Positions 1,328 through 8,164 of a stretch of 8,164 nucleotides of DNA are shown piece by piece. The first letter of the stretch is position 1. The number at the start of each line of letters is the position of its first letter. This DNA comes from Naegleria gruberi (lineage: Eukaryota). The stretch is from assembly GCA_000004985.1 (NCBI GenBank), contig GG739086.1; one strand, 5' to 3'. The notes below the pieces were generated by a model, which saw only the letters and a program-made list of their open reading frames with translations, had not been told where the DNA came from and searched no databases. A program made the translations under genes and the position numbers.

Positions 1328-1936
1328 ATGATTTTCAAAATTTACAACAATTTACAAATACATGTAAATTCAAGATGCAATGTACTCAAATATAGTTCCA
1401 CTGTACTAAACAAATCAATTCACGGTACCACTTTTGAAAAAATCCCCAAATGGTTTTATACGAAAGATTGGACGATTCTCTCAAGCAAAAAAAATACAAC
1501 AACAAACGCAATGATCACAGATGTTGTCTCACCCACCGTGACCATTCACAACAATAACGACACGAAGGATGACTCTAACAAACAGTCGACGAAACCTAAT
1601 GTTGTTTCGGATAGCACAATCACTCCAAACGAAACTAGCAAAAAAACAGGATTGACTGCATCCTCTACCGTAACAACTCTTGATGACATGGAAACGAAAG
1701 TAATTCTAACAAATTTAAAGAATGCTTCGAATGTAAATTATGTAGAAACTCAAAATTGGAAGAAAGGTCTAAAAGGAATTAGACGAAAGAAATATACTTG
1801 GACATTTCTAACAGTTTGTGGATTTGTTGGTGGAGTGATTATTTATACGCATGATTTGATTGTCAAATACATGTTTCAGGGAAGGTTGACTTTGATAAAT
1901 GCATTCGATTCGAATAGTATTTCGGGTTACGTTTAG
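1328..1936 (+). CDS. Hypothetical S/T/N-rich protein with a single C-terminal transmembrane segment (tail-anchored-like topology)
   Basis: The ORF track gives 1301-1936, but the codon at 1301 is TTG (a prokaryotic-style alternative start). The first in-frame ATG is 1328-1330, in the context gaaaATGatt, and an in-frame upstream stop lies at 1271-1273. The ORF is 202 codons, unusually long for DNA this AT-rich, and ends at TAG 1934-1936, 4 nt before the gap. The hydrophobic stretch WTFLTVCGFVGGVIIY is preceded by a basic cluster (GIRRKKY), consistent with a positive-inside rule. The N-terminal ~160 aa are rich in S/T/N/K (low complexity). I recognise no similarity to any known family. Confidence 0.45.
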   Translation: MIFKIYNNLQIHVNSRCNVLKYSSTVLNKSIHGTTFEKIPKWFYTKDWTILSSKKNTTTNAMITDVVSPTVTIHNNNDTKDDSNKQSTKPNVVSDSTITPNETSKKTGLTASSTVTTLDDMETKVILTNLKNASNVNYVETQNWKKGLKGIRRKKYTWTFLTVCGFVGGVIIYTHDLIVKYMFQGRLTLINAFDSNSISGYV

Positions 1937-1940
1937 TTTT

Positions 1941-4900
1941 NNNNNNNNNNNNNNNNNNNNNNNNNNNNNNNNNNNNNNNNNNNNNNNNNNNNNNNNNNNN
2001 NNNNNNNNNNNNNNNNNNNNNNNNNNNNNNNNNNNNNNNNNNNNNNNNNNNNNNNNNNNNNNNNNNNNNNNNNNNNNNNNNNNNNNNNNNNNNNNNNNNN
2101 NNNNNNNNNNNNNNNNNNNNNNNNNNNNNNNNNNNNNNNNNNNNNNNNNNNNNNNNNNNNNNNNNNNNNNNNNNNNNNNNNNNNNNNNNNNNNNNNNNNN
2201 NNNNNNNNNNNNNNNNNNNNNNNNNNNNNNNNNNNNNNNNNNNNNNNNNNNNNNNNNNNNNNNNNNNNNNNNNNNNNNNNNNNNNNNNNNNNNNNNNNNN
2301 NNNNNNNNNNNNNNNNNNNNNNNNNNNNNNNNNNNNNNNNNNNNNNNNNNNNNNNNNNNNNNNNNNNNNNNNNNNNNNNNNNNNNNNNNNNNNNNNNNNN
2401 NNNNNNNNNNNNNNNNNNNNNNNNNNNNNNNNNNNNNNNNNNNNNNNNNNNNNNNNNNNNNNNNNNNNNNNNNNNNNNNNNNNNNNNNNNNNNNNNNNNN
2501 NNNNNNNNNNNNNNNNNNNNNNNNNNNNNNNNNNNNNNNNNNNNNNNNNNNNNNNNNNNNNNNNNNNNNNNNNNNNNNNNNNNNNNNNNNNNNNNNNNNN
2601 NNNNNNNNNNNNNNNNNNNNNNNNNNNNNNNNNNNNNNNNNNNNNNNNNNNNNNNNNNNNNNNNNNNNNNNNNNNNNNNNNNNNNNNNNNNNNNNNNNNN
2701 NNNNNNNNNNNNNNNNNNNNNNNNNNNNNNNNNNNNNNNNNNNNNNNNNNNNNNNNNNNNNNNNNNNNNNNNNNNNNNNNNNNNNNNNNNNNNNNNNNNN
2801 NNNNNNNNNNNNNNNNNNNNNNNNNNNNNNNNNNNNNNNNNNNNNNNNNNNNNNNNNNNNNNNNNNNNNNNNNNNNNNNNNNNNNNNNNNNNNNNNNNNN
2901 NNNNNNNNNNNNNNNNNNNNNNNNNNNNNNNNNNNNNNNNNNNNNNNNNNNNNNNNNNNNNNNNNNNNNNNNNNNNNNNNNNNNNNNNNNNNNNNNNNNN
3001 NNNNNNNNNNNNNNNNNNNNNNNNNNNNNNNNNNNNNNNNNNNNNNNNNNNNNNNNNNNNNNNNNNNNNNNNNNNNNNNNNNNNNNNNNNNNNNNNNNNN
3101 NNNNNNNNNNNNNNNNNNNNNNNNNNNNNNNNNNNNNNNNNNNNNNNNNNNNNNNNNNNNNNNNNNNNNNNNNNNNNNNNNNNNNNNNNNNNNNNNNNNN
3201 NNNNNNNNNNNNNNNNNNNNNNNNNNNNNNNNNNNNNNNNNNNNNNNNNNNNNNNNNNNNNNNNNNNNNNNNNNNNNNNNNNNNNNNNNNNNNNNNNNNN
3301 NNNNNNNNNNNNNNNNNNNNNNNNNNNNNNNNNNNNNNNNNNNNNNNNNNNNNNNNNNNNNNNNNNNNNNNNNNNNNNNNNNNNNNNNNNNNNNNNNNNN
3401 NNNNNNNNNNNNNNNNNNNNNNNNNNNNNNNNNNNNNNNNNNNNNNNNNNNNNNNNNNNNNNNNNNNNNNNNNNNNNNNNNNNNNNNNNNNNNNNNNNNN
3501 NNNNNNNNNNNNNNNNNNNNNNNNNNNNNNNNNNNNNNNNNNNNNNNNNNNNNNNNNNNNNNNNNNNNNNNNNNNNNNNNNNNNNNNNNNNNNNNNNNNN
3601 NNNNNNNNNNNNNNNNNNNNNNNNNNNNNNNNNNNNNNNNNNNNNNNNNNNNNNNNNNNNNNNNNNNNNNNNNNNNNNNNNNNNNNNNNNNNNNNNNNNN
3701 NNNNNNNNNNNNNNNNNNNNNNNNNNNNNNNNNNNNNNNNNNNNNNNNNNNNNNNNNNNNNNNNNNNNNNNNNNNNNNNNNNNNNNNNNNNNNNNNNNNN
3801 NNNNNNNNNNNNNNNNNNNNNNNNNNNNNNNNNNNNNNNNNNNNNNNNNNNNNNNNNNNNNNNNNNNNNNNNNNNNNNNNNNNNNNNNNNNNNNNNNNNN
3901 NNNNNNNNNNNNNNNNNNNNNNNNNNNNNNNNNNNNNNNNNNNNNNNNNNNNNNNNNNNNNNNNNNNNNNNNNNNNNNNNNNNNNNNNNNNNNNNNNNNN
4001 NNNNNNNNNNNNNNNNNNNNNNNNNNNNNNNNNNNNNNNNNNNNNNNNNNNNNNNNNNNNNNNNNNNNNNNNNNNNNNNNNNNNNNNNNNNNNNNNNNNN
4101 NNNNNNNNNNNNNNNNNNNNNNNNNNNNNNNNNNNNNNNNNNNNNNNNNNNNNNNNNNNNNNNNNNNNNNNNNNNNNNNNNNNNNNNNNNNNNNNNNNNN
4201 NNNNNNNNNNNNNNNNNNNNNNNNNNNNNNNNNNNNNNNNNNNNNNNNNNNNNNNNNNNNNNNNNNNNNNNNNNNNNNNNNNNNNNNNNNNNNNNNNNNN
4301 NNNNNNNNNNNNNNNNNNNNNNNNNNNNNNNNNNNNNNNNNNNNNNNNNNNNNNNNNNNNNNNNNNNNNNNNNNNNNNNNNNNNNNNNNNNNNNNNNNNN
4401 NNNNNNNNNNNNNNNNNNNNNNNNNNNNNNNNNNNNNNNNNNNNNNNNNNNNNNNNNNNNNNNNNNNNNNNNNNNNNNNNNNNNNNNNNNNNNNNNNNNN
4501 NNNNNNNNNNNNNNNNNNNNNNNNNNNNNNNNNNNNNNNNNNNNNNNNNNNNNNNNNNNNNNNNNNNNNNNNNNNNNNNNNNNNNNNNNNNNNNNNNNNN
4601 NNNNNNNNNNNNNNNNNNNNNNNNNNNNNNNNNNNNNNNNNNNNNNNNNNNNNNNNNNNNNNNNNNNNNNNNNNNNNNNNNNNNNNNNNNNNNNNNNNNN
4701 NNNNNNNNNNNNNNNNNNNNNNNNNNNNNNNNNNNNNNNNNNNNNNNNNNNNNNNNNNNNNNNNNNNNNNNNNNNNNNNNNNNNNNNNNNNNNNNNNNNN
4801 NNNNNNNNNNNNNNNNNNNNNNNNNNNNNNNNNNNNNNNNNNNNNNNNNNNNNNNNNNNNNNNNNNNNNNNNNNNNNNNNNNNNNNNNNNNNNNNNNNNN

Positions 4901-6665
4901 NNNNNNNNNNNNNNNNNNNNNNNNNNNNNNNNNNNNNNNNNNNNNNNNNNNNNNNNNNNNNNNNNNNNNNNNNNNNNNNNNNNNNNNNNNNNNNNNNNNN
5001 NNNNNNNNNNNNNNNNNNNNNNNNNNNNNNNNNNNNNNNNNNNNNNNNNNNNNNNNNNNNNNNNNNNNNNNNNNNNNNNNNNNNNNNNNNNNNNNNNNNN
5101 NNNNNNNNNNNNNNNNNNNNNNNNNNNNNNNNNNNNNNNNNNNNNNNNNNNNNNNNNNNNNNNNNNNNNNNNNNNNNNNNNNNNNNNNNNNNNNNNNNNN
5201 NNNNNNNNNNNNNNNNNNNNNNNNNNNNNNNNNNNNNNNNNNNNNNNNNNNNNNNNNNNNNNNNNNNNNNNNNNNNNNNNNNNNNNNNNNNNNNNNNNNN
5301 NNNNNNNNNNNNNNNNNNNNNNNNNNNNNNNNNNNNNNNNNNNNNNNNNNNNNNNNNNNNNNNNNNNNNNNNNNNNNNNNNNNNNNNNNNNNNNNNNNNN
5401 NNNNNNNNNNNNNNNNNNNNNNNNNNNNNNNNNNNNNNNNNNNNNNNNNNNNNNNNNNNNNNNNNNNNNNNNNNNNNNNNNNNNNNNNNNNNNNNNNNNN
5501 NNNNNNNNNNNNNNNNNNNNNNNNNNNNNNNNNNNNNNNNNNNNNNNNNNNNNNNNNNNNNNNNNNNNNNNNNNNNNNNNNNNNNNNNNNNNNNNNNNNN
5601 NNNNNNNNNNNNNNNNNNNNNNNNNNNNNNNNNNNNNNNNNNNNNNNNNNNNNNNNNNNNNNNNNNNNNNNNNNNNNNNNNNNNNNNNNNNNNNNNNNNN
5701 NNNNNNNNNNNNNNNNNNNNNNNNNNNNNNNNNNNNNNNNNNNNNNNNNNNNNNNNNNNNNNNNNNNNNNNNNNNNNNNNNNNNNNNNNNNNNNNNNNNN
5801 NNNNNNNNNNNNNNNNNNNNNNNNNNNNNNNNNNNNNNNNNNNNNNNNNNNNNNNNNNNNNNNNNNNNNNNNNNNNNNNNNNNNNNNNNNNNNNNNNNNN
5901 NNNNNNNNNNNNNNNNNNNNNNNNNNNNNNNNNNNNNNNNNNNNNNNNNNNNNNNNNNNNNNNNNNNNNNNNNNNNNNNNNNNNNNNNNNNNNNNNNNNN
6001 NNNNNNNNNNNNNNNNNNNNNNNNNNNNNNNNNNNNNNNNNNNNNNNNNNNNNNNNNNNNNNNNNNNNNNNNNNNNNNNNNNNNNNNNNNNNNNNNNNNN
6101 NNNNNNNNNNNNNNNNNNNNNNNNNNNNNNNNNNNNNNNNNNNNNNNNNNNNNNNNNNNNNNNNNNNNNNNNNNNNNNNNNNNNNNNNNNNNNNNNNNNN
6201 NNNNNNNNNNNNNNNNNNNNNNNNNNNNNNNNNNNNNNNNNNNNNNNNNNNNNNNNNNNNNNNNNNNNNNNNNNNNNNNNNNNNNNNNNNNNNNNNNNNN
6301 NNNNNNNNNNNNNNNNNNNNNNNNNNNNNNNNNNNNNNNNNNNNNNNNNNNNNNNNNNNNNNNNNNNNNNNNNNNNNNNNNNNNNNNNNNNNNNNNNNNN
6401 NNNNNNNNNNNNNNNNNNNNNNNNNNNNNNNNNNNNNNNNNNNNNNNNNNNNNNNNNNNNNNNNNNNNNNNNNNNNNNNNNNNNNNNNNNNNNNNNNNNN
6501 NNNNNNNNNNNNNNNNNNNNNNNNNNNNNNNNNNNNNNNNNNNNNNNNNNNNNNNNNNNNNNNNNNNNNNNNNNNNNNNNNNNNNNNNNNNNNNNNNNNN
6601 NNNNNNNNNNNNNNNNNNNNNNNNNNNNNNNNNNNNNNNNNNNNNNNNNNNNNNNNNNNNNNNNN
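1941..6665. other. Assembly gap (4725 N)
   Basis: An uninterrupted run of n. No biological inference is possible inside it. Confidence 0.97.
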
Positions 6666-7072
6666 TGATAGAGAATTGGAACTTGATCAATCACTAAAGG
6701 CTGATGATTATTATTAGTTGGAGGAAGAATGACAACTTGTTGGGGAGAATTTGTTGAATTGTTATTGTTCACCACATTGTTAGTGTTCATCATCATGGTT
6801 GGAGGTGAAACTCTTTGGATTGGAACAGTTTGTTGGATCGGATGTGGTTGAAGGTTAGGAGAGGTTTGTTGGCCATGCATCATTTGTTGTTGTTGTTGGT
6901 TATTTATCACAATCAGGTTATTATTATTACTATTGGGTGTTAGTGTTCTTGTTGATTGATTCGGAAGAGGAGGTAATTGAGTTGTTTGTTGTTGTGGTTG
7001 AGGTTGTTGAGGATGAGCGTGAGCATAAATCATCCGAACTGGTTGCTGTTGTGGTTGTTGTTGGGGATCCAT
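6666..7072 (-). CDS. Q/N/P-rich low-complexity protein, N-terminal 135 aa only (gene continues into the assembly gap)
   Basis: The minus-strand ATG at 7072-7070 is followed by an open frame up to the gap edge. The product begins MDPQQQPQQQPVRMIYAHAHPQQPQPQQQ and continues with NNNN, QQQQQ and MMM runs. Codon choice is strongly biased (about 30 CAA versus 2 CAG), which supports real coding rather than a random open frame. An in-frame stop lies upstream at plus 7097-7099. The start context (ttctATGgat) is weaker than at the other genes, so the true start could be the second Met (PVRM) or lie in an upstream exon. Confidence 0.55.
6884..6898. repeat. (TTG)5 trinucleotide microsatellite, (CAA)n on the coding strand, within the Q-rich CDS
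   Basis: The sequence tttgttgttgttgttgg is read directly. Further imperfect TTG/GTT-rich stretches lie at 6981-7010 and 7041-7064. On the minus strand these encode the Q runs. Confidence 0.7.
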
Positions 7073-7405
7073 AGAACTAAATAACTTGATGAAAAATCAC
7101 TTGGGCAATTCAACTACAAATGTTGTTGATATTATTAATACTTTTTTTTAGATAGTTAAATTGAAACGTGAGCATGTAATGGATTTGAATTGGAAACAAA
7201 AAGATTTTAGAATCGTGATTGGGGAAAGGAATTGTATTAGGATGATTTAACCTTGTAATACTTTATTAATTGGCTCGATTTATGAATTTGTAAAGAACTT
7301 TTTTGTTGTATTATTCTATTGATATTATTTGATGATGAAATATAATATTAATAATAGGTTGATCGGGTGATGATGAAAAGAAAAATTAATTTCATGATTA
7401 AAAAA
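7073..7405. promoter_or_regulatory. Divergent promoter region shared by the Q-rich gene (minus) and the small charged protein gene (plus)
   Basis: AT-rich sequence lies between the two start codons. ATTGG (an inverted CCAAT box) occurs three times on the plus strand, at 7189-7193, 7218-7222 and 7269-7273. TATA-like tataatattaataata sits about 50-60 bp upstream of ATG 7406. On the minus strand, tattaataata sits about 50 bp upstream of ATG 7072. Confidence 0.4.
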
Positions 7406-7690
7406 ATGTCTTCCAGTGTTGGTAAGAGAGGTCTTTCGGAAAGAGAGCTCCAAAGAAAAGAGGAACAATTAGCAAAGACTTATGGCTATGAAACAGATCT
7501 CACCCACAATGAAGAGTCTGTAGTACAAAAGGAATCTCCAACCACTCCAAAAACTGGTTCTTTTAAGGAATTTCTTGCTAGTATTTCCACTTGTGAAAAG
7601 GGTAGAAAGAAGAGAAAGCCTAATGTTGCTTGCCATGCTCCAGCTAAAACTTTAGATACTGTTGAACCAGTCACTCCAATGACCAAATAA
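7406..7690 (+). CDS. Small (94 aa) highly charged K/R/E-rich protein with a basic NLS-like cluster (KGRKKRKP); likely highly expressed
   Basis: The ORF track starts at 7367, which is GTG. In-frame ATGs lie at 7370, 7373, 7394 and 7406. I favour 7406 (MSSSVGKRG...) because of the aaaaaaATGtct context and because sequence upstream of it is AT-rich and UTR-like, while the optimised codon bias begins after it. A start at 7370 cannot be excluded. The stop is TAA at 7688-7690. Codon usage is strongly optimised (AGA, GGT, AAG, GCT, CCA, TCT, ACT, GTT) and differs clearly from the AT3-rich codons of the neighbouring F-box gene. The 66-aa minus ORF at 7486-7686 is antisense to this gene and I dismiss it. 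Confidence 0.6.
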   Translation: MSSSVGKRGLSERELQRKEEQLAKTYGYETDLTHNEESVVQKESPTTPKTGSFKEFLASISTCEKGRKKRKPNVACHAPAKTLDTVEPVTPMTK

Positions 7691-8164
7691 TTAAACTATG
7701 AATCATTAGAGAACAATTTACCATCAGACAACATACAATTAGACTGAACAACAAACACACGAGAAACATCAACCAATAGTAATATATTCTAAATCTCTAG
7801 GAAATCCAGTTCATTCAATCCATTGAACAAACCACGGATGAAAGCCTGTAAATAAATAATTTATCTCATAAGAAATAATCGGAAAGTTTTTCATACTTTC
7901 ATACAACAACAATAATCATACAATGATGAATTGGATAGAGGAATAACCCACTTCTCCGCTTCTTCTTGAAAACACCACCATCAAGAAATTGTATTGAAAA
8001 TATCGGAAGACGGAAGCACTTACTAGTAATACATTATCTGACCAGCAAACATTTCATCCATCACTATTCGTTGTTCGTTCATCATGATATTATGATGTAA
8101 AGAGACAATGGACGACTCGACTTGAAAAAATTACGACAAACACTCATCATTGGCAAGTCTATTG
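7691..8164 (+). other. ORF-poor, A+C-rich (plus strand) region downstream of the small gene; probable 3' UTR, intergenic DNA, or part of an intron-containing or non-coding transcript
   Basis: The track shows no ORF of at least ~60 aa in any frame. The plus strand is depleted of G and T (for example gaacaacaaacacacgagaaacatcaaccaatag). Start-stop pairs are very short on both strands. Confidence 0.3.

Follow-up and report, generated by a model that had tools for sequence, protein, structure and literature searches.

A Naegleriidae-restricted gene for a small, mostly disordered basic protein with five conserved sequence blocks

Results

A single-exon gene encodes a 94-residue protein near the right end of the window

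The 8,164-nucleotide stretch of contig GG739086.1 analyzed here (hereafter, the window) carries, near its right end, a plus-strand open reading frame (ORF) at 7367..7690, which the initial annotation had described as coding for an orphan small basic protein. The ORF was present as claimed and counts 107 codons from a GTG. In-frame ATGs are located at 7370, 7373, 7394, and 7406, and translation from the last of these yields the 94-residue product MSSSVGKRGLSERELQRKEEQLAKTYGYETDLTHNEESVVQKESPTTPKTGSFKEFLASISTCEKGRKKRKPNVACHAPAKTLDTVEPVTPMTK, with a mass of 10.5 kDa and an isoelectric point (pI) of 9.17. We consider it practically certain that this ORF represents a genuine gene, with a single exon and subject to purifying selection, and that its product is a mostly disordered basic protein, confined to Naegleriidae, with five conserved short blocks. 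The features of the locus are collected in Table 1.

Table 1. Coordinates of the small gene, the sequence blocks of its product, and the adjacent features. Positions are those of the window unless a locus is named.
Feature	Position	Strand	Basis or remark
Coding sequence (CDS) of the 94-residue protein, single exon, TAA stop at 7688-7690 included	7406..7690	+	ORF listing; homologue alignment from M1 to the C-terminal K
In-frame upstream extension (GTG 7367; ATG 7370, 7373, 7394)	7367..7405	+	without counterpart in homologues
A-rich start context aaaaaaATG	7400..7408	+	aaaaaATG in 6/6 family members
Block 1, residues 9-32, GxSxxELQ[KR]xE[EL][QT]LAKx[YF]GYExD[LV]	7430..7501	+	pattern in 6/6 members; predicted amphipathic helix 12-26
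Block 2, residues 49-62, Kx(1-2)SFxEF[LI]xx[IV]	7550..7591	+	alignment; second predicted helix 53-62
Basic cluster KGRKKRKP, residues 65-72; KRK (69-71) invariant	7598..7621	+	set in variable, indel-rich linker
Block 3, residues 78-84, [SA]PAKT[LI][DE]	7637..7657	+	6/6 members
C-terminal [VT]TP[MI] (VTPM, residues 89-92)	7670..7681	+	sole Ser/Thr-Pro site common to all members
Divergent intergenic region, 333 bp, from the Q-rich minus-strand gene (ATG 7072-7070) to the small gene	7073..7405	.	gene layout
Downstream CCR4/PDE12-like gene	L002:8920-10527; L004:8986-10599; L006:8747-10303; L007:819-2393; L008:931-993; L009:121-1719		

The start site was assigned by comparison with the homologues described below. 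Because the homologue starts align at ATG 7406, and because locus L008 and N. lovaniensis have in-frame stops 3–5 codons 5′ of the conserved ATG, the 94-residue form was taken as the conserved product, and the region 7367..7405 is probably a 5′ leader rather than conserved coding sequence. The 107-residue alternative that had been offered for the protein was dropped on the same grounds. The start position, the start context, and, within Naegleria, the stop position are conserved among the homologues. The A-rich start context noted earlier is indeed present and conserved, although an F-box gene in the window also has aaaaaaaATG, so that such a context is not peculiar to the small gene.

Next, the ratio of nonsynonymous to synonymous substitution rates (dN/dS, Nei-Gojobori) was calculated from unsaturated pairs; synonymous sites were saturated in the more distant ones. 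The ratio was 0.27 for the window gene versus that of L008 and 0.13 for N. fowleri versus N. lovaniensis. One might suspect a mis-called exon or an ORF that arose by chance, as the ORF is short, the sequence is AT-rich, and the window has a large masked stretch. Against this stand six orthologues with conserved start, stop, and blocks, and the dN/dS range of 0.13–0.27. Furthermore, the antisense ORFs at 7469-7636 and 7486-7686 were without independent support; the only tblastn matches, which were to the antisense frame of 7486-7686, fall within the CDS of orthologous small genes on the opposite strand. We therefore regard this explanation as effectively refuted and its probability as negligible.

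The protein belongs to a six-member family found in Naegleriidae

A word-limited search of 5.8 billion proteins gave a sole match, the same ORF on the metagenome contig L001 (ENA ERZ929261, 1020 bp). This contig is 98.3% identical in DNA to window positions 7164-8164 (9 mismatches, 4 gaps), and the encoded protein is identical. On this match, a very close relative of the window's organism is present in the sample. When 1.84 billion cluster representatives were searched exhaustively with phmmer, three relatives were returned (E = 1.5e-25, 7.9e-13, and 8.3e-07), and a profile search widened the family to six members, in which the Naegleria members had E = 3e-34 to 7e-41. The family comprises the window protein, two environmental proteins, P0006 and P0002 (76% and 63% identity, respectively), and the homologues of N. 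lovaniensis, N. fowleri, and Willaertia magna.

The homologues from named species are FDP41_010396 (N. fowleri, XP_044568044 / A0A6A5C873), C9374_008964 and C9374_014324 (N. lovaniensis), and ABK040_012952 (W. magna). Aligned identity was 53–59% for Naegleria and 43% for Willaertia, and these proteins, which are true homologues, share the five blocks and the start context. They were deposited as “hypothetical protein”, without a name or a Pfam domain, and a full-text search by the locus tags and accessions of the orthologues retrieved no papers. The Willaertia orthologue (L006:8001-8498) has a 55-residue N/Q/E-rich N-terminal extension preceded by the same aaaaaATG, and it ends in ...TTPIQQ, so that the final Naegleria residues are missing. 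In N. lovaniensis, the small gene, a CCR4/PDE12-like gene, TAP42, and a kinase gene are identical on L004 (PYSW02000036.1) and L005 (PYSW02000088.1); this doubling probably comes from a haplotig or a duplicated part of the assembly, and not from a duplication of the genes.

Both Naegleria and Willaertia are members of Naegleriidae (Heterolobosea), and among the sequences searched, the family is confined to this group. These results bear on two points of the initial annotation. The orphan status was lost, as five homologues exist and the protein is instead a member of a lineage-restricted family. Similarly, the yeast-like or dictyostelid setting assumed for the locus did not survive, since all relatives are Naegleria or Willaertia, and the window thus derives from an amoeboflagellate of the Naegleria type. 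No human relative of the family was detectable. The exact sequences of the 94-residue protein and of a 202-residue protein encoded elsewhere in the window were both absent from annotated protein collections. Thus, the window copy joins a catalogued but functionally uncharacterized family whose orthologues are already deposited.

Conserved blocks are set in a chain predicted to be mostly disordered

The window protein contains 17 Lys and Arg against 13 Asp and Glu residues, giving a net charge of approximately +4, and the pI is 9.2–9.6 across all family members. As had been described, its composition is dominated by Lys, Arg, Glu, Ser, and Thr (51% of residues), and the basic cluster KGRKKRKP was found, with its KRK invariant in the family. 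AlphaFold2, run with the six-sequence alignment, gave a mean predicted local distance difference test score (pLDDT) of 68.7 and a predicted template modeling score of 0.28. Helices were placed at residues 12-26 and 53-62 without further secondary structure, and residues 11-30 had a mean pLDDT of 88–89. The chain is therefore predicted to be mostly disordered, with two short amphipathic helices.

Five blocks occur in the same order, that is, block 1, KxSFxEF[LI], KRK, [SA]PAKT[LI][DE], and [VT]TP[MI], and the window protein as well as the other five members all match them. The linkers between the blocks vary in both sequence and length, being rich in insertions and deletions (indels). The C-terminal Thr-Pro reads PxTP in the five Naegleria sequences.

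Comparison with described protein families

The initial annotation could not place the protein in any described family and suggested a profile hidden Markov model search. The exhaustive phmmer search and the profile search gave relatives that were all from Naegleriidae and no well-known small-protein family, and comparisons with Pfam, PDB, and hhalign, which likewise gave no convincing match, bore the statement out. A Pfam scan of the 94- and 107-residue forms and of all six members yielded sub-threshold, non-recurrent matches only. Those to Skp1, RGS12_usC, BCL9, NinE, and Ribosomal_S21 were each seen in one of the six members and were regarded as chance. For the Skp1 C-terminal dimerization region (PF01466; E=0.011, 16 bits against a gathering cut-off of 22.3 bits), residues 20-44 (EQLAKTYGYETDLTHNEESVVQKES) resemble positions 21-45 of the 48-position model, but the small protein lacks the BTB/POZ part of Skp1. 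The PDB profile search returned only a trimeric autotransporter fragment (E=0.84), which was rejected, and none of the 516 pattern matches that the family alignment produced in JGI metagenome contigs was a relative.

Families of similar size were then compared one by one. Endosulfine (ENSA)/ARPP19 was rejected, as FDSGDY is absent in 6/6 members and no Pfam match appeared at E<=10. PCLAF/PAF15 and p21-type PCNA binders were rejected because the PCNA-interacting peptide (PIP) box Qxx[LIM]xx[FY][FY] and the KEN motif are absent in all members and the hhalign probability for PCLAF was 1.6%; KxSFxEF[LI] is a loose PIP-like pattern at most. NUPR1/p8 (Phospho_p8) gave an hhalign probability of 0.3% and no Pfam match; the NUPR1 and PCLAF comparator sequences used for hhalign were entered by hand. 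WH2 and thymosin-beta, in which an amphipathic helix is followed within a few residues by L[KR][KRH][VTA], were excluded by the absence of an LKKT-type motif in all members and of Pfam WH2 or thymosin matches. Several likenesses noticed by eye failed at consensus positions across the family, namely UBA/CUE (“MGF/GYE” loop), the stathmin “SLEEIQKKLE” helix, the complexin “DKYGI” helix, MIU/UIM, RPEL, PAM2, the mitogen-activated protein kinase (MAPK) D-site, the Cdc4/Fbw7 degron, and Ku-binding motifs.

These comparisons bear on the explanation that the protein is a strongly diverged member of a known small-protein family, such as ENSA/ARPP19, PCLAF/PAF15, NUPR1/p8, a WH2/thymosin-type protein, or a Skp1-derived fragment. 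ENSA/ARPP19, PCLAF, and NUPR1 are alike in being disordered proteins of ~80–120 residues with short conserved motifs, a basic or nuclear localization signal (NLS)-like patch, and proline-directed phospho-sites; in size, disorder, and basic cluster, the small protein is similar. Furthermore, the segment RKPNVACHAPAKTLD is similar to RKVVAARAPRKVLG of PCLAF, and the weak Skp1 match might hint at such descent. However, that match is below its gathering score in a single member, the hhalign probabilities are very low, and there is no sequence or profile relationship to ENSA/ARPP19, PCLAF, or NUPR1; FDSGDY, the canonical PIP box, LKKT, KEN, and the destruction box (D-box) are absent in every member. 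The exhaustive phmmer search likewise reached Naegleriidae only. On these comparisons, the explanation is currently refuted, and we consider it very improbable.

Codon usage shows a shift compatible with above-average expression

The initial annotation had named a set of preferred codons, and these are used as claimed: AGA 5/5, GGT 4/5, AAG 8/12, GCT 4/5, CCA 5/6, TCT 4/9, ACT 7/11, and GTT 3/6. The frequency of optimal codons (Fop), scored with an assumed yeast-like optimal-codon set, was compared with simulated sequences having the same amino-acid composition and codons drawn from the three unmasked neighboring ORFs. The observed Fop was 0.65 against 0.41±0.044 in the simulation, and 0/5000 simulations reached the observed value. 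Similarly, the effective number of codons (Nc) was 29.9 against 38.4±4.8 (p=0.015). When the background was the CCR4/PDE12-like gene of the metagenome sample that contains L001, the simulated Fop was 0.49±0.048 against 0.65 (p=0.0002). The shift in Fop and Nc therefore lies beyond chance, in line with the claim that codon usage differs sharply from that of the neighbors. However, the overall deviation was no greater than that of two neighbors; the heterogeneity test gave z=3.1 for the small ORF, 3.3 for the F-box gene, and 3.2 for the 202-residue ORF.

The supposed contrast with an otherwise AT3-biased locus (biased toward A/T at third codon positions) was also not seen, since the ORF itself has 73% A/T at these positions and its third-position G+C content (GC3) of 0.26 is within the 0.16–0.34 of the neighbors. 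The shift consists of T in place of A in four-fold families and of AAG. The two-fold pyrimidine codons are T-ending in 9/10 cases and TTG serves for 0/6 Leu codons, unlike in a fully optimized gene. AAG accounted for 38/58 Lys codons in the window ORF and its Naegleria orthologues, for 5/50 in the window neighbors, and for 44/100 in the adjacent CCR4/PDE12-like genes. As for the F-box gene, its codons show extreme AT3 bias (GC3 0.16, AAA for 28/29 Lys codons).

In N. clarki and W. magna, a low Nc tends to go along with high expression of a gene (PMC11702301). Above-average expression would fit both the codon shift (AAG, GCT, GGT, ACT) and the A-rich context conserved at the start, although neither proves it. 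In N. fowleri omics supplements, of which partial files were available, the orthologue was not found, and the searches gave no record of expression for any of the orthologues.

These data are relevant to another explanation, in which the product would not be a signaling adaptor but a basic protein of high abundance that associates with nucleic acid, ribosomes, or chromatin, as HMGN, SERBP1/Stm1, or hibernation factors do. The basic pI shared by all members, the predicted disorder with a basic patch, and a codon bias and start context compatible with high expression are what such a protein might show. The net charge, however, is only slightly positive, and the best-conserved blocks are hydrophobic or acidic (ELQ..LAK.YGYE.D and SF.EF[LI]), not basic. 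Furthermore, Stm1, HABP4, HMG, SERF, and TMA7 gave no Pfam match at E<=10, and the protein was not found in the partial files of the N. fowleri proteomic supplements. We thus consider this explanation rather unlikely.

Genomic context of the small gene

The promoter and the 5′ leader presumably lie in the 333-bp divergent region of Table 1. The small gene of N. fowleri and that of N. lovaniensis are each located head to head with a Q-rich ubiquitin C-terminal hydrolase (UCH; ubiquitin-specific protease, USP) gene. At the same head-to-head position, the window has the Q/P/N-rich N-terminus of a long, mostly masked minus-strand ORF starting at 7072, and this masked gene may be orthologous to the Q-rich deubiquitinase gene (UCH/USP). 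The masked stretch inside this ORF spans positions 1941 to 6665 (4725 bases, all N).

On the 3′ side, a same-strand gene of 518–537 residues lies 248–685 bp from the small gene in N. fowleri, N. lovaniensis (two contigs), W. magna, L007, and L008. All of the related loci that were read show this pairing. The window itself stops at 8164, short of where that gene should begin; the spacing in L008 (608 bp) would put it ~130 bp beyond the window end. Comparison of the 16-kb loci of N. fowleri and W. magna showed that the small gene and this gene are the only two that they share. The downstream protein matched PDE12 (6e-5), Ccr4 (1.4e-3), and CNOT6L (8e-3) over the first part of the endonuclease/exonuclease/phosphatase domain, and its N-terminus, MGxxxS, is of the myristoylation type. 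It has LQN[VI] in place of the LQEV of PDE12, Ccr4, and CNOT6L. The Glu of LQEV is a metal-binding catalytic residue. Weak matches to the AIR9 A9 Ig domain (E 0.017-0.06) were also observed at residues ~50–100 in 3/3 copies tested. A profile search found the downstream protein only in Naegleria-type sequences; it missed the known W. magna copy and was thus not exhaustive. The downstream protein may be a lineage-specific pseudo-nuclease.

It is conceivable that the small protein is tied to the CCR4/PDE12-like gene as a regulatory subunit, as an inhibitor, or as the upstream cistron of a shared transcript. This would agree with the same-strand placement in every related locus read, with the pair being common to the N. 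fowleri and W. magna loci, with the LQN[VI] substitution in a PDE12/Ccr4/CNOT6L-like protein, and with its apparent restriction to Naegleria-type sequences within the reach of that search. In addition, the metagenome sample with the 98.3%-identical window copy contains L009, a contig with the downstream-type gene. However, L001 and L009 do not overlap and the window stops at 8164, so that the pairing in the window's organism is inferred only. Eukaryotic gene order may also persist without functional coupling, and the exhaustive search detected no fusion of the small and downstream proteins. For a shared transcript in particular, the conserved stop, the 250–690-bp spacer, and the strong start context on a 94-codon ORF speak against efficient dicistronic reinitiation. 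A Logan contig that covers both N. fowleri genes has the genome sequence throughout and stops at a CAA repeat; being of undefined library type, it was uninformative on transcripts. We judge such a tie to be improbable on present evidence.

In its fullest form, this explanation holds that the small protein and the myristoylation-type CCR4/PDE12-like protein with its LQEV-to-LQN[VI] change constitute a two-gene module specific to Naegleriidae, in tandem since before the Naegleria/Willaertia split, in which the pseudo-nuclease would have a dedicated regulator or partner in the small protein, or the pair would be carried on one dicistronic transcript. We give this version a low probability. If true, a regulator–pseudo-nuclease module or a dicistronic transcript would be unusual for a heterolobosean nuclear genome.

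Other features of the window

At positions 1-1085 on the minus strand, the window carries the gene for an F-box and leucine-rich-repeat protein (PF12937 2.2e-11, PF00646 1.8e-08), with its ATG at 1085-1083 and running off the left end. The 202-residue ORF (1328-1936, plus strand) has a hydrophobic C-terminal segment; it showed no Pfam match and no counterpart in the fetched N. fowleri, N. lovaniensis, and W. magna loci. Scans of the window for tRNA and Rfam families found nothing.

Discussion

The small gene identified here, conserved in start, stop, and blocks, codes for a protein whose conserved elements are short and separated by variable linkers. We tentatively propose that this protein works through short linear motifs, as a regulator or adaptor, and is neither an enzyme nor a structural fold; this part of the interpretation is possible, but we hold it with more doubt than confidence. 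In the proposed mechanism, the helices at residues 12-26 and 53-62 would dock onto one or more partner proteins, the invariant KRK would serve as the core of an NLS or as an electrostatic contact, and the family-wide C-terminal Thr-Pro (Thr90 in the window protein; PxTP in Naegleria) could be a proline-directed phospho-switch of the cyclin-dependent kinase (CDK) or MAPK type. Small disordered regulators of the cell cycle or of stress, such as ENSA/ARPP19, PCLAF, and NUPR1, exemplify the kind of mechanism proposed. The small protein is possibly nuclear. A 10.5-kDa protein can enter the nucleus without an NLS. When the well-supported gene and protein description is combined with this regulator or adaptor mechanism, the statement as a whole comes slightly short of an even chance.

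Several observations weigh against our interpretation. The family has only six, fairly close sequences, and some of the positions scored as conserved may mirror short divergence rather than constraint. The strict monopartite NLS consensus K[KR]x[KR] is found at the basic cluster in 3/6 members (the window protein, P0006, and W. magna); P0002, N. lovaniensis, and N. fowleri have KRK there without it. Patterns for the PIP box, D-box, KEN, RVxF, B56 LxxIxE, WH2 LKKT, and ENSA FDSGDY were found in 0/6 members. With respect to expression, the yeast-like optimal-codon set may not be that of Naegleria, and the Fop excess of the orthologues was +0.09 in N. fowleri (p=0.03), +0.05–0.06 in N. lovaniensis, L007, and L008 (p ~0.15), and zero in Willaertia. 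High expression, which codon usage makes plausible, is thus unproven, because the optimal-codon set is assumed and the shift is weakly conserved in orthologues.

Overall, the core of the initial annotation stands, in that the protein is small and basic, has a conserved basic cluster, and is unassigned to any described family, but its host type and orphan status have been replaced by a family of Naegleriidae. Lineage-restricted, uncharacterized small disordered proteins of this kind are numerous in every eukaryotic genome. Our analysis fixes the start, the motif blocks, and the limits of the family, which is restricted to a genus with a pathogenic member, N. fowleri. Transgene expression in N. 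fowleri has been reported (PMC12845041). The tandem arrangement of the small gene and a divergent CCR4/PDE12-like gene, conserved among the related loci and inferred from them for the window's organism, offers a concrete lead to function and the most useful one. Should the two genes indeed form a physical or transcriptional module, this would be a modest but genuine gain for heterolobosean cell biology.

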